Origin: an uncultured Anaerolineales bacterium
Lineage (GTDB): Bacteria > Chloroflexota > Anaerolineae > Epilineales > JAANWY01
Direction: 5' to 3'
Assembly: GCA_964532665.1 (NCBI GenBank)
Contig: CAZHMV010000001.1
Span: 103,742-167,741 of the forward strand
Length of the DNA stretch: 64,000 nt
A program made the position numbers and the translations under genes. Under the pieces are notes generated by a model. That model saw only the letters and a list, made by a program, of their open reading frames with translations, was not told the origin of the DNA and searched no databases. Of this stretch, positions 2,932 to 47,179 are shown one piece after another. Numbering within the stretch: position 1 is the first letter of the stretch; the number at the start of each line of letters is the position of its first letter.

Positions 2932-3597
2932 TCAATCTTTCTCCGGAGTGCGGGTCACGTACACATTCCGCGCCAATTCGCGCCCGACAACGTGTTCCTC
3001 GTTCCCTACACGGAGCGTGAGCGGGCCATCAAATGGCGCCACATTGATAACCTCAATGGCCGTGTTGGGAAACAGGCCAAGGGTGCCCAGGTACCGTAGC
3101 TTCGCAGCGTCCTCGTCACTGACCTGGCGGATGATGACAGTCTGACCGGCCTGGACTTCGGCAAGGGGAGTATGCAGCGGTTCGTAAAGTTCACCTTCGG
3201 CAGTGGGGATTGGGGCACCGTGGGGGTCGATCAGAGGCTCGCCCAGGGCATCGGCGATAGCTGCTTCCAGGTCATCAGAAAGAACGTGCTCCAGCCTCTC
3301 GGCCTCGGCGTGTACCTTGTCCCAGGGGATCCCCAGCGCCTCAGCCAGGTAGAGCTCAAGTAGCCGATGATGCCGAATCATTTGCACGGCGATTTTCCTG
3401 CCGGCCTCGGTCAAGGCCACACCTCGATACGGCTCGTAGGTCAGCAGGTTCATGTCCGCCAGCCTTTTCACCATGTTGGTGACAGATGCCGGCGATACCT
3501 CCAGCCGTTCGGCGATAGCCGATGTGGTCACCCGTTTCCCCCGGCGACCCAGCTTGTAGATCGTCTTCAGGTAGTCCTCGATTGACTGGCTGACCAT
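2932..3597 (-). CDS. DtxR/MntR-family metal-dependent transcriptional repressor with C-terminal FeoA/SH3-like domain
   Basis: N-terminal winged HTH (DYLKTIYKL...SPASVTNMVKRL), a metal-binding/dimerisation region and a FeoA-like C-terminus. Convergent with the CDF exporter. Confidence 0.85.
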   Translation of the reverse strand: MVSQSIEDYLKTIYKLGRRGKRVTTSAIAERLEVSPASVTNMVKRLADMNLLTYEPYRGVALTEAGRKIAVQMIRHHRLLELYLAEALGIPWDKVHAEAERLEHVLSDDLEAAIADALGEPLIDPHGAPIPTAEGELYEPLHTPLAEVQAGQTVIIRQVSDEDAAKLRYLGTLGLFPNTAIEVINVAPFDGPLTLRVGNEEHVVGRELARNVYVTRTPEKD

Positions 3598-3731: not shown

Positions 3732-3766
3732 CCTCGCATAGAGTATAGTGGGGGTTCCGCGTTTTG

Positions 3767-4906
3767 TCAAGTGCCGGCTGTGGCTTCGAGCGTGGCAGTT
3801 ATGGCCGTCAGCACGTCGGCCTCGGTGACGTCCAGGACGTGGCCTGATGGCGCGCGAACGATGCGGTGATACTCGGGGGTGCCCCAGGGTCCAAAGATCT
3901 CTGGTTCGAACGGTCCCCACAGGTGAACTGTTGGCACATCCAGGGCGACAGCCAGGTGCATCGGGCCGGTGTCTGCGCCGACGGCCAGGCGGCAGCGAGC
4001 CAGCAACGCCGCGGCCTGCCCCAACGTGGTCTCGCCGGCCGCGATGACCGGCGTCGCGTGCATGTGTTCCGCAATGGTCCTGGCCAACTCATCCTCGTCA
4101 GGCGAACCAGTGATGACAATTCGCGCCCCCAGCGTCTCGGCCAGGTGATCCGCCACGGCTGCCCATCGGCGGGCCGGCCAGAGTTTAGCGGGGTCGCCGG
4201 CCCCCGGGTGCACCCCGACGACGGTTTCATGCGGTTCGATCCCCTGATCCGCCAGGAATTGGCTGGCGAAGGCCCGTTCATCCGCCGTCAGGTCGAACCG
4301 CAGCCGGCGGTTGGTGTCGGGAACTGGCCGGCCGGCAGTCCGGGCCAGGGCTTCAACCAGCGCCAGGTTGTGTTGCACTGCGTGTCGATCAGGTACATAA
4401 GCAAGCGCCGTCGTGAGGAAAGGTTGCGTTTCCGGCGTGGCGTAGCCGATGCGTGCCGGGATGCCGGCCAACGCGCTCAGAAGAGCCCCCCACCAGTGAT
4501 CGAATCGCAGGATCAGCGCCGTATCGAAGCCATGCGGGCGCAGCCATCGCGCCTCGCGCAACAACACGCGGTATGGATACCATGGCGAAGGTTTGGGCCG
4601 GCGATCGAACCAGGGGAACGGACATCTGAGCACAGCATCCACATTCGGGTTCCGCTCAACGACCGTGGCAGCCCACGGACCGACGAGGGTGGTGATTCGT
4701 GCATGCGGAAACGTCTCGCGCAGCAGTTGCAGGGCCGGCGTCGCGAACAGCAGATCGCCGATGTGGTCCGGTCGAATCACCAGGATGTGATCTGGCTGCA
4801 GACGGCCGTCTGCAGACGGCGTCTGGATGCCGTGGGCTGCAAGCCGCAAGAGTTGAAGCCGGAGCCATGCGTGTCGCATCATGTTGCCAGGCGCAAGAGT
4901 GTACAT
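3767..4906 (-). CDS. Glycosyltransferase family 9 (heptosyltransferase-like, RfaF/WaaC family)
   Basis: GT9 motifs: IRPDHIGDLLFATPAL and HPGAGDPAKLWPARRWAAV. Confidence 0.75.
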   Translation of the reverse strand: MYTLAPGNMMRHAWLRLQLLRLAAHGIQTPSADGRLQPDHILVIRPDHIGDLLFATPALQLLRETFPHARITTLVGPWAATVVERNPNVDAVLRCPFPWFDRRPKPSPWYPYRVLLREARWLRPHGFDTALILRFDHWWGALLSALAGIPARIGYATPETQPFLTTALAYVPDRHAVQHNLALVEALARTAGRPVPDTNRRLRFDLTADERAFASQFLADQGIEPHETVVGVHPGAGDPAKLWPARRWAAVADHLAETLGARIVITGSPDEDELARTIAEHMHATPVIAAGETTLGQAAALLARCRLAVGADTGPMHLAVALDVPTVHLWGPFEPEIFGPWGTPEYHRIVRAPSGHVLDVTEADVLTAITATLEATAGT

Positions 4907-45417: not shown

Positions 45418-45486
45418 CGGGATGCGGGATGTGAGATACGGGATACGAGATACGGGATGCCGCATCCCGCATCTCGCGTCACGTCC
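45418..45486. repeat. Heptamer-periodic hairpin element (GGGATRY family); overlaps the last codons of the downstream gene
   Basis: gggatgcgggatgtgagatacgggatacgagatacgggatgccgcatcccgcatctcgcgtcacgtccc. Confidence 0.75.
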
Positions 45487-46507
45487 CACTCGTCATGCCC
45501 AACGGCGCTTCCTCGACAGGTGATTCTATTTCCACTTCCGTCCTTACCTCCTCCCACGACAGATGCTCGCGCCAGAGATAGAAAGCACCCAGAGCGGTGA
45601 TGGGCAGCCAAAGGGCTGCGTGGAGCACGGCAGTGTACGCTGTGGCTACGCTGCCGGCCACGCCAAAGTTCTCCAGAATCTCAATCCCCGGGGCATCGAA
45701 CGTACCGATGTAGCCAGGGGCCGCCGGCAGTGTGGTGAACAGGTTGACCACGCCGTTCATCAGCATCAGCACGTAGAAATCGACATGAAACGGGAACGCG
45801 TGCATCACGAACCAGTACTTGCCCGTCTCAAACAGCCAGATGACGACAGACGTGATGAAAATCATCATCACGTCTCGCCCTCTGCGCAGCGAATGCAGCC
45901 CTTCCAGGAAGAGGTCAAGGGGTTCTCGCACACGCGGTTGCAATCTTTCGGGCAGCAGGCGTTCGATGAGCCGGCCGTAGATGGCTTGGGCGCGCTCCGG
46001 CATGGCTGCCAGCAACAGAAAGACGACCAACGCCCCGATGAACAGCAGGCTGAACAGAACAACGAAGGTGCTGTAGCGCGACCCCAGGCCGGCAATCGGC
46101 AGAGTGATGAACACGAACAGCAGCATCGTGAGTCCGTCGAACAGCCGCTCCACGACCACCGTCGCCAGCGTGGCACTGATGGGAACGCCGGTTCGTCTTT
46201 TGAGCGCGTATGAGCGCAGGAGTTCGCCGGCTCGAGCCGGGTAGATGTTGTTACCCATATAGCCGATGCAGACGAAGGGAAACAACTGCTGCAGGGAGAT
46301 GACCTTCAAGGGACGGAGCATATAGTGCCAGCGCCAGGTGCGCGCCCCCACGCCCAGGAAATACACGGCGACACCCGGCAATAGCCAGAAGTATTGCGCG
46401 TTTTGTAACGCATGCCACACTTCGGGAAGGTCCTGCTTGCGCAGTACAAACGCCAGAAGAATGGCGCTGATAAGCATTCCCAACCAGAATCGCCAGCGTT
46501 TCCGCAT
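45479..46507 (-). CDS. LPG_synthase_TM / UPF0104-family integral membrane protein (flippase-like domain)
   Basis: Eight predicted TM helices with a GVGARTWRWHYMLR-type motif, followed by a cytoplasmic tail. Confidence 0.6.
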   Translation of the reverse strand: MRKRWRFWLGMLISAILLAFVLRKQDLPEVWHALQNAQYFWLLPGVAVYFLGVGARTWRWHYMLRPLKVISLQQLFPFVCIGYMGNNIYPARAGELLRSYALKRRTGVPISATLATVVVERLFDGLTMLLFVFITLPIAGLGSRYSTFVVLFSLLFIGALVVFLLLAAMPERAQAIYGRLIERLLPERLQPRVREPLDLFLEGLHSLRRGRDVMMIFITSVVIWLFETGKYWFVMHAFPFHVDFYVLMLMNGVVNLFTTLPAAPGYIGTFDAPGIEILENFGVAGSVATAYTAVLHAALWLPITALGAFYLWREHLSWEEVRTEVEIESPVEEAPLGMTSGT

Positions 46508-46615: not shown

Positions 46616-46715
46616 AGGAAGGAATGGAAGTGTGGAAGAGGGAGAATGGAAGATGGACAATGGAAAGGGGAAGATGGAGGTTGACCTCCATCTTCCCCTT
46701 TCCGTTGTCCATCTT
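46612..46715. repeat. Heptamer-periodic repeat (GGAATGG/AAGATGG...) forming a roughly 32-bp near-perfect hairpin abutting the SWIM gene stop
   Basis: gaagatggacaatggaaaggggaagatggagg-ttgacc-tccatcttcccctttccgttgtccatcttc. Confidence 0.8.
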
Positions 46716-46973
46716 CTAGTTGGCGCTTGTTTCAGCCATCCACTCAGGACGAAGCATGCCGTTCAAGACCCGCTCCATGGTCATGGTGTGGCTGCACACA
46801 CCGCGCGTCAGGAAGAAATCGCAATCGCAATTCCAGTGGCCCTCGTTGTATGAAACTGCATGTGAGTTGTGGTCGCCAGCAATTGTAACTCTGAACTCAC
46901 TGAAAACGATCCGGTCTGTTTCTTGCGCGTATTGCTTCGCCTTCTGGATCTTGCCGATCATCGCCGAATCCAT
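46716..46973 (-). CDS. Small SWIM zinc-finger protein (85 aa)
   Basis: CxC-x11-CxH pattern (HWNCDCDFFLTRGVCSH). A GAAGGAGG RBS precedes the ATG. Confidence 0.5.
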   Translation of the reverse strand: MDSAMIGKIQKAKQYAQETDRIVFSEFRVTIAGDHNSHAVSYNEGHWNCDCDFFLTRGVCSHTMTMERVLNGMLRPEWMAETSAN

Positions 46974-47026
46974 TTCTAAGAACCTCCTTCTTCTTGATGA
47001 GAGGGAAACCTGGTGAGTTAGGAAAC

Positions 47027-47062
47027 AAAAAGCACGCAGGCAGACACCTACCTACGTGCTTC
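47027..47062 (-). terminator. Rho-independent terminator (stem AAGCACG/CGTGCTT followed by a TTTTTGTTT tract)
   Basis: Minus strand. It is downstream of the PGI/PMI gene and lies inside the leader of the SWIM gene. Confidence 0.6.
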
Positions 47063-47150
47063 TCCAGACGCTTACTCGCGTTGCTCTTCGGCTCATTGGA
47101 GTTACTTGGGTCCTCCTTGCGGCCACGTCGCCGCTAAGTTCTTCATGTCA

Positions 47151-47179
47151 AGTATAACCGTTTCGATTCGCGATGTCAA
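47151..47179 (-). promoter_or_regulatory. Near-consensus sigma70 promoter TTGACA-17-TATACT firing toward the terminator and SWIM gene
   Basis: -35 at 47179..47174 and -10 at 47156..47151 (minus strand). GC-poor local context. Confidence 0.5.

Follow-up and report, generated by a model that had tools for sequence, protein, structure and literature searches.

A Conserved Leader with a Promoter, a Short Open Reading Frame and a Terminator Upstream of a SWIM-like Gene in Anaerolineae: A Candidate Ribosome-Occlusion Attenuator

The Gene and Its Leader

We analyzed a stretch of 64,000 nucleotides (nt) from an uncultured Anaerolineales bacterium of the Chloroflexota (GenBank assembly GCA_964532665.1, contig CAZHMV010000001.1), here called the window, with positions counted from its first letter. 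On its minus strand, a gene for a small SWIM-like zinc-finger protein is preceded by a compact leader made up of a promoter, a short upstream open reading frame (uORF) and an intrinsic terminator. An earlier account made from the letters of the window (the sequence-only reading) had described this leader as either an independent small RNA (sRNA) or a terminator-based attenuator or riboregulator, and had suggested a conservation scan in relatives. In that scan, the order of promoter, uORF, terminator and gene recurs in about 140 divergent loci and, as judged from sequence comparison, is beyond chance. We consider it likely that the leader is a ribosome-occlusion attenuator, with a mechanism like that of pyrBI, in which a ribosome on the uORF would directly keep the terminator hairpin from forming; the functional steps of this model are read from the sequences.

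The SWIM-like gene (46716-46973, minus strand, ATG at 46973) encodes 85 amino acids and was identified from its open reading frame (ORF), Pfam and its homologues, many of which are found in metagenome-assembled genomes of Chloroflexota. The label SWIM, proposed in the sequence-only reading, fits approximately. The residues C49, C51, C60 and H62 of the zinc-binding CxCxnCxH motif are invariant in 32 homologues. The match to Pfam SWIM (PF04434) scores 17.0 bits, below the cut-off of 19.6, and NCBIfam gives only a sub-threshold match, to the SWIM region of Snf2 helicases. The AlphaFold2 model has a predicted local distance difference test score of 87, and a search for relatives in the PDB found none by sequence and none significant by fold (Foldseek). 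The gene has a Shine-Dalgarno (SD) sequence of its own, GAAGGAGG, at 46990-46983 (minus strand), 9 nt before the ATG; both the ribosome binding site and the start codon are where they had been proposed.

The promoter had been proposed as TTGACA-17-TATACT on the minus strand and was confirmed at 47179-47151. Sequence inspection and a consensus scan both place the -35 hexamer TTGACA at 47179-47174 and the -10 hexamer TATACT at 47156-47151, with a spacer of 17 nt. It matches the consensus at 11 of 12 positions, and the exact pattern TTGACA-N17-TATACT occurs twice in the 64 kb compared with 0.05 occurrences expected from shuffles. From the usual distance to the -10 hexamer, transcription is predicted to start near 47144. 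A short RNA from there to the end of the terminator near 47024 would be about 120 nt long, in agreement with the length first proposed; its fold as a whole reaches -48.4 kcal/mol (z = -4.2). The minimum free energy fold contains a 5' hairpin, GCGGC-GACGUG-GCCGC (47134-47119, minus strand), directly upstream of the SD-like sequence of the uORF. This hairpin is also part of the consensus structure of the window clade, and analogous 5' hairpins, judged by eye, are found in other clades.

The uORF, noted earlier as a 14-codon micro-ORF preceded by AAGGAGGA, was likewise recovered. The SD-like AAGGAGGA lies at 47118-47111 and the reading frame of 14 codons plus TAG at 47096-47052 (both minus strand), with the translation MSRRATRVSVWRST. 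The gap between SD and AUG is 15 nt, compared with 9 nt for the SWIM-like gene. The stop codon (TAG, 47054-47052) is inside the 5' arm of the terminator, 6-10 nt from the base of the arm depending on how many weak basal pairs are counted. The fold also contains a small hairpin (ACGC-GAGUAA-GCGU, 47081-47068, minus strand), which belongs to the uORF and ends 3-6 nt ahead of the terminator stem; most of the window clade retains it, with little covariation.

The terminator itself (minus strand) consists of a 5' arm at 47064-47048, the loop GUGU at 47047-47044, a 3' arm at 47043-47027 and the tail UUUUUGUUU, which extends to 47023. The hairpin (47064-47027) has a predicted stability of -26.9 kcal/mol (z = -7.7 relative to shuffles), and the stem AAGCACG/CGTGCTT with its U-tract, from which the sequence-only reading had recognized it, is the base of this longer structure. 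Between the terminator and the SWIM-like gene, a consensus scan of the window found no second promoter.

Conservation of the Leader in Anaerolineae

A seed alignment of the 32 homologues was used to gather loci in three sets: 80 from species-representative genomes (where at least 571 stretches were confirmed), 80 from metagenomes (at least 580 stretches, with no close relatives of the window among those loci), and 10 close relatives of the window retrieved by exact-protein look-up. After removal of duplicates, 152 upstream regions from Anaerolineae-class Chloroflexota encoding the SWIM-like protein were compared. Carriers are assigned to Anaerolineae, Anaerolineales, Caldilineales, Ardenticatenales, Longilinea and Brevefilum. 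When the 200 nt upstream of the gene are printed for each locus, the succession of promoter, purine-rich SD, short ORF, terminator, SD and gene is seen almost everywhere.

The individual parts are conserved to different degrees. Promoters were scored at 137 testable loci as the match to the 12-position -35/-10 consensus, and all 137 match at 10 or more positions. TATACT is the -10 hexamer in 128 of these; the -35 hexamer reads TTGACA 101 times and TTGACT 25 times. The leader promoter is near-consensus and probably strong. A terminator with a U-tract (ΔG ≤ -10 kcal/mol) was found at 140 of the 152 loci, in every case downstream of the promoter. A subset of 138 loci with a U-tract hairpin of at least 12 kcal/mol stability (ΔG ≤ -12), no more than 130 nt from the gene, has a median ΔG of -18.8 kcal/mol. 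An SD precedes the SWIM-like gene at 149 of 152 loci. Between the beginning of the U tract and the start codon of the gene there are a median of 47.5 nt (minimum 21), which leaves no room for a separate promoter and 5' untranslated region; thus, the gene would be transcribed only by read-through of the terminator.

We also built a covariance model from 77 leaders of other clades, with the window clade left out. It matches the window at 47023-47116 (minus strand) over its full length (30.4 bits, E = 6.8e-6), with the AUG of the model aligned to the AUG of the uORF, and this is the only significant match on either strand of the 64 kb. In 428 kb of related loci, 52 of 52 model matches are on the gene strand and upstream of the SWIM-like gene. 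Given the position of the unit directly upstream of this gene, the lack of room for a second promoter and the location of the model matches, the comparative evidence favors a putative attenuator over an independent sRNA, the two options that the sequence-only reading had offered. A riboswitch-type interpretation finds no support from Rfam: the suggested search (Rfam 15, gathering score) returned zero matches in the 64 kb, and at E ≤ 10 only spurious microRNA-hairpin matches to the terminator appeared.

In two loci another gene stands between the leader and the SWIM gene. L017 has a leader at 2372-2473 followed by an ORF of 93 amino acids (2672-2953), and L079 has a leader at 2206-2301 followed by a peroxiredoxin-like ORF of 219 amino acids (2307-2966). 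These interposed genes imply that the leader would gate an operon and not one fixed gene boundary. In a further locus, L005, a single SWIM-like gene is preceded by two leaders in tandem (2434-2533 and 2658-2760). Of these, the upstream one has a weaker U tract and is similar to the leader type of L004; the arrangement could be either a tandem attenuator or a decaying duplicate.

The Reading Frame Within the Leader

To score uORFs in the 138-locus terminator subset, we applied strict criteria: a start codon (ATG, GTG or TTG) 33-48 nt upstream of the stem, an SD-like motif 3-13 nt ahead of that codon, and no in-frame stop earlier than 12 nt before the stem. The control consisted of 200 dinucleotide-preserving shuffles of the 100 nt preceding the stem. 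Such uORFs are present at 113 of the 138 loci compared with 15.0 ± 3.5 (maximum 25) in the shuffles, and a stop codon within -12 to +20 of the stem start at 85 loci compared with 6.5 ± 2.3, so that SD, start codon and frame are 7-13 times commoner than in shuffled sequence. The geometry is rigid as well. The start codon lies exactly 40 nt from the stem in 40 loci and 38-42 nt away in 74, a sharp peak, and the position of the stop peaks at +8 and -1 relative to the first base of the stem, +8 being the commonest and also the position in the window. Judging by these comparisons, the micro-ORF is the central conserved feature of the element.

A looser search (start codon 15-95 nt upstream of the terminator stem) recovered candidate uORFs at 120 of the 138 loci. 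They begin with ATG (89), GTG (16) or TTG (15) and with no other codon. Their stop codons lie in the 5' arm in 59 cases, in the loop in 16, no more than 12 nt before the stem in 12 and in the 3' arm in one; the remaining 32 frames cross the terminator, and nine of these extend to the start of the SWIM gene.

The encoded peptides are 9-19 residues long (median 16), basic and unrelated between clades, as illustrated by MIVSALQIGKHFVPKH, MSVIRLSQLNIPQQKTP and MSGVARKGRTCPY next to MSRRATRVSVWRST of the window. The composition of 72 unique peptides shows no excess of any amino acid over that of out-of-frame translations. The idea that the leader senses an amino acid through Cys or His codons, suggested by the zinc-finger product, was rejected on this ground.

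Several observations bear on whether the frame is maintained as a coding sequence. The third codon position is the most variable in three clades, and the synonymous fraction of single-nucleotide codon differences in frame compared with the two shifted frames is 0.41 vs. 0.25/0.33, 0.36 vs. 0.34/0.15 and 0.37 vs. 0.15/0.26. This putative coding signal is moderate but consistent. All eight distinct sequences of the window clade retain the ORF, even though many of the changes between them are non-synonymous. Within this clade, L168 and L169 have an 11-nt insertion and have lost the TAG (GCACGUAGG to GCACGCAGG), and a new in-frame TGA is found at the base of the stem; this relocation of the stop is what selection for an ORF ending at the terminator predicts. 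The SD-AUG gap of 15-16 nt is kept in the close relatives L002, L003, L165 and L166, compared with 7-13 nt in other clades. An upstream in-frame GTG was considered as an alternative start for the window clade and rejected, as it is absent in L003 and followed by an in-frame stop in L165.

Two clades have particular features. In one (L018, L020, L048, L088 and L110), the uORF starts with a TTG that lies 4 nt upstream of the position of the AUG in other clades. The terminator arm holds no stop for this frame, which continues across the terminator for 28-38 codons. Three of these loci (L018, L020 and L110) have the end of the frame at the SD of the SWIM-like gene, an arrangement that suggests a variant of the design with translational coupling. 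In clade C1 (e.g., L015, leader at 2858-2961), the stretch GCUUUACAA, covering uORF codons 5-7 (Ala-Leu-Gln), is almost invariant: it has one substitution (L032) and zero synonymous changes, while the neighboring codons vary. A CAA or CAG codon near position 7 recurs in other clades. The invariance of GCUUUACAA points to a constraint at the nucleotide level or on the nascent peptide.

A Ribosome-Occlusion Model and Its Alternatives

In the mechanism that we propose, the terminator hairpin would form by default and transcription would end before the SWIM-like gene. A ribosome that starts on the uORF and trails the RNA polymerase closely would cover the 5' arm of the terminator as the 3' arm and the U tract emerge, and on reaching the stop codon it would cover the loop too. 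The occluded hairpin could not form, and the polymerase would read through into the SWIM gene. Taking the approximately 10-nt downstream protection quoted in PMC4824070, a ribosome with the TAG at 47054-47052 in its A site would cover the RNA to about 47042, that is, the whole 5' arm and the loop. The output of such a leader would report how promptly and tightly translation follows transcription and not the level of one amino acid or ligand. Since neither the sequences nor the compositions of the peptides are conserved across clades, we regard a specific metabolite as a less likely signal than the general capacity for translation or its coupling to transcription.

The case for direct occlusion draws on features that were observed directly, namely the anatomy of the leader, its conservation, its reading frame and the absence of alternative pairing. 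The sequence-only reading had suggested a search for anti-terminator pairing, and none emerged: in RNAs truncated after the 5' arm (129 loci), the probability that this arm pairs with the leader is 0.425, compared with 0.472 when the leaders are shuffled. With a terminator as the sole obstacle to transcription of the gene, an ORF that ends in its 5' arm and no alternative pairing, direct occlusion is the simplest model. We infer the translation of the uORF, a read-through that depends on it and a physiological condition that alters the coupling.

Other explanations were weighed against the same evidence. The transcript of about 120 nt could be a gene in its own right, an abundant sRNA or the mRNA of a micro-peptide, with the SWIM-like gene expressed by unregulated leakage. 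It has its own near-consensus promoter, a strong terminator and a stable 5' hairpin, and peptide motifs with synonymous changes are found within clades (e.g., Q-L in one and R-Q in another). However, the peptides are unrelated between clades whereas the geometry is kept (a start codon 40 nt ahead of the stem and a stop codon within it); in the 428 kb of related loci and the window, every copy of the unit belongs to a SWIM-family operon; and without another promoter for the SWIM gene, its transcription has to pass the terminator. We regard an independent RNA or peptide gene as unlikely; a role of the abundant short RNA in trans is conceivable. The leader could also be a coincidence of ordinary parts, that is, the terminator of the upstream gene, constitutive partial read-through and a chance ORF. 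The window by itself lends some color to this: the PGI/PMI gene upstream ends 33 nt before the -35 hexamer on the same strand with no terminator between, so the suggestion of the sequence-only reading that the terminator also serves this gene is plausible here, and short open frames are common. It does not account for the presence of the terminator, as the upstream neighbor differs between clades (PGI, HAD hydrolase, MoaA) and in one clade is a divergent LacI-family gene, while the promoter is upstream of the terminator in all loci and SD, start and frame together exceed shuffles by the factor given above. We consider such a coincidence very improbable.

It is also conceivable that a trans-acting factor or a physical signal controls the leader, with the uORF executing the response or being incidental; autoregulation by the SWIM-like protein, another RNA-binding protein, temperature and a small ligand are the candidates. 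Autoregulation would fit the strict association with one gene family, and clade C1 provides further hints: an 11-bp hairpin that holds the SD and AUG of the uORF, with three compensatory pairs, and the GCUUUACAA stretch with its lack of synonymous variation. Against this, RNAalifold found no SD/AUG hairpin in another clade, and sequestration of the initiation region is not general, as this region is barely less accessible than in shuffled controls across the family (0.434 vs. 0.463). No conserved aptamer-like structure was found in the leaders, nor any Rfam match or alternative pairing with the terminator. For autoregulation, the SWIM-like protein would have to bind its own leader, and its fold has no solved relative. 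Even taken together, these candidates seem quite unlikely to us as the primary control, and such a signal could coexist with the occlusion model.

Several points weigh against ribosome occlusion itself. That the uORF is translated and that the hairpin terminates transcription are both predictions. The loci are phylogenetically related, and the counts given above exceed the number of independent observations. By the strict criteria, 25 of the 138 loci (about 18%) have no uORF, the coding signal is not strong, and the clade with TTG starts and read-through has its start codon off the homologous position. The SD-AUG spacing of 15-16 nt in the window clade is poor for initiation. There is also a kinetic difficulty: according to PMC4824070, an E. 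coli terminator 30 nt after the start codon was relieved only about 10% by translation, as the first ribosome rarely caught up with the polymerase. Since a start-proximal terminator was relieved so little there, efficient termination is probably the default here, and relief would need fast initiation, a polymerase pause, or both. Efficient relief would depend on such a pause, and no U-rich pause region was identified in the leader. The small hairpin at 47081-47068 is, speculatively, a candidate pause signal.

The fixed spacing of 40 nt suggests a geometric constraint between ribosome and polymerase. In expressome structures, the ribosomal P site comes no closer than about 30-35 nt to the active site of the polymerase. 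Once the polymerase has reached the release site, which lies about 80 nt beyond the AUG, a trailing ribosome would be near the stop codon of the uORF. One could go further and see in the leader a dedicated gauge of transcription-translation coupling, conserved across the class, with the SWIM-like protein in the same circuit. In such a gauge, an AUG 40 nt before the stem, a stop codon 8 nt into the 5' arm and a release site about 80 nt beyond the AUG would mean that only a ribosome in near-contact with the RNA polymerase prevents termination, and the SWIM-like protein would act on the translation or transcription machinery or bind its own leader. We offer this extension as a long shot.

Comparison with Known Leaders

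The mechanism class is already known, and the leader family is outside Rfam; in the open-access full-text literature we found no prior description of the leader or of the small SWIM-like protein of Chloroflexota. The closest parallel is found in the pyrimidine attenuators of E. coli. There, pyrL has 44 codons, UTP-sensitive pausing takes place at U-rich sites, and pyrimidine genes are controlled. By comparison, the uORFs described here have a median of 16 codons, start 34-40 nt from the stem and precede a SWIM-like target; they have no sequence relationship to the pyr attenuators, no evident UTP-sensing features and no pyrimidine genes downstream, and are thus not members of that group. What they would share with pyrBI (pyrL) and rph-pyrE is, according to PMC5021804 and PMC4824070, a leader ORF that enters the terminator, a close ribosome that blocks the hairpin and no need for an antiterminator. 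For the pyrBI leader, the occlusion mechanism is attributed in PMC5021804 to Roland et al. (1988).

Experimental precedents for the mechanism include single or engineered E. coli cases, unlike the family described here. In PMC4824070, the start region of lambda tR2/ninA and synthetic constructs likewise have a terminator about 30 nt after the start codon or a stop codon near the terminator. When the stop codon was moved from 28 to 5 nt upstream of tR2, termination fell from about 90% to less than 10%, an effect that vanished without translation, and the authors put the free RNA that must separate the A site from the hairpin for folding at 10-15 nt (PMC4824070). In Streptococcus gallolyticus pil1, as reported in PMC3894217, longer leader peptides that reach the terminator raise transcription because the ribosome destabilizes the hairpin. 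The pil1 switch is genetic, with phase-variable GCAGA repeats that alter the length of the ORF, whereas here the length is fixed and conserved.

Other attenuators resemble the leader in parts and differ in logic. Those of trp, his and leu share a leader peptide and an intrinsic terminator upstream of the regulated gene; however, they need runs of regulatory codons and a 2:3 antiterminator, neither of which was found here, and in them a ribosome at the stop codon favors termination, opposite to the logic predicted for our leaders. The erm, cat, bmrCD and ABC-F leaders, as presented in PMC4191407 and PMC4335068, share a short uORF before a terminator and the use of the ribosome as a sensor. In these drug-inducible leaders, stalling switches alternative structures and resistance genes are controlled, and neither is seen here.

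If our interpretation is right, these leaders represent a compact attenuator family conserved across the class Anaerolineae, in which almost no gene regulation has been studied experimentally and in which at least 571 genome stretches encode the protein. Its rigid spacing would make it a natural reporter of ribosome-polymerase distance in Chloroflexota, and the conserved 85-amino-acid zinc-finger protein would be marked as tightly regulated. For genome annotation, there is reason to call a uORF of 14-19 codons and a premature terminator at such loci.

Neighboring Genes and Other Features of the Window

The gene upstream of the leader in the window encodes a bacterial PGI-type SIS protein, and downstream of the SWIM-like gene are genes for an LPG_synthase_TM-family membrane protein and an amine-oxidase-like flavoprotein. 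The LPG_synthase_TM-family gene is the commonest neighbor across the family, downstream on the same strand at 56 of 124 loci in several clades, and this synteny hints at a functional link to the SWIM-like gene. In the window (45479-46507, minus strand) it appears to have a promoter-like site of its own, TTGTTT-17-TATAAT, with an upstream TG.

The stop codon of the SWIM-like gene marks the start of an inverted repeat of 33 bp (46649-46716, minus strand; 97% complementary, without a U tract). The repeat has no second copy in the window and gave spurious microRNA-precursor matches in Rfam. Close relatives have a similar GGAAGGGGGAAGA... hairpin with a T-rich tail, and the repeat is likely the 3'-end hairpin or terminator of the unit. 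An intrinsic terminator no more than 130 nt after the SWIM-like gene was found at 112 of 148 related loci; thus, the unit is usually monocistronic.

The other occurrence of the TTGACA-N17-TATACT pattern in the window is at 3742-3770 (minus strand). It is followed by about 145 nt of leader, extending to about 3598 and containing direct repeats (GAGTTCCC...), and then by an ORF of 221 amino acids (2932-3597, minus strand), the N-terminus of which resembles, by eye, a metal-dependent repressor of the DtxR/MntR type. This may be another regulated leader.

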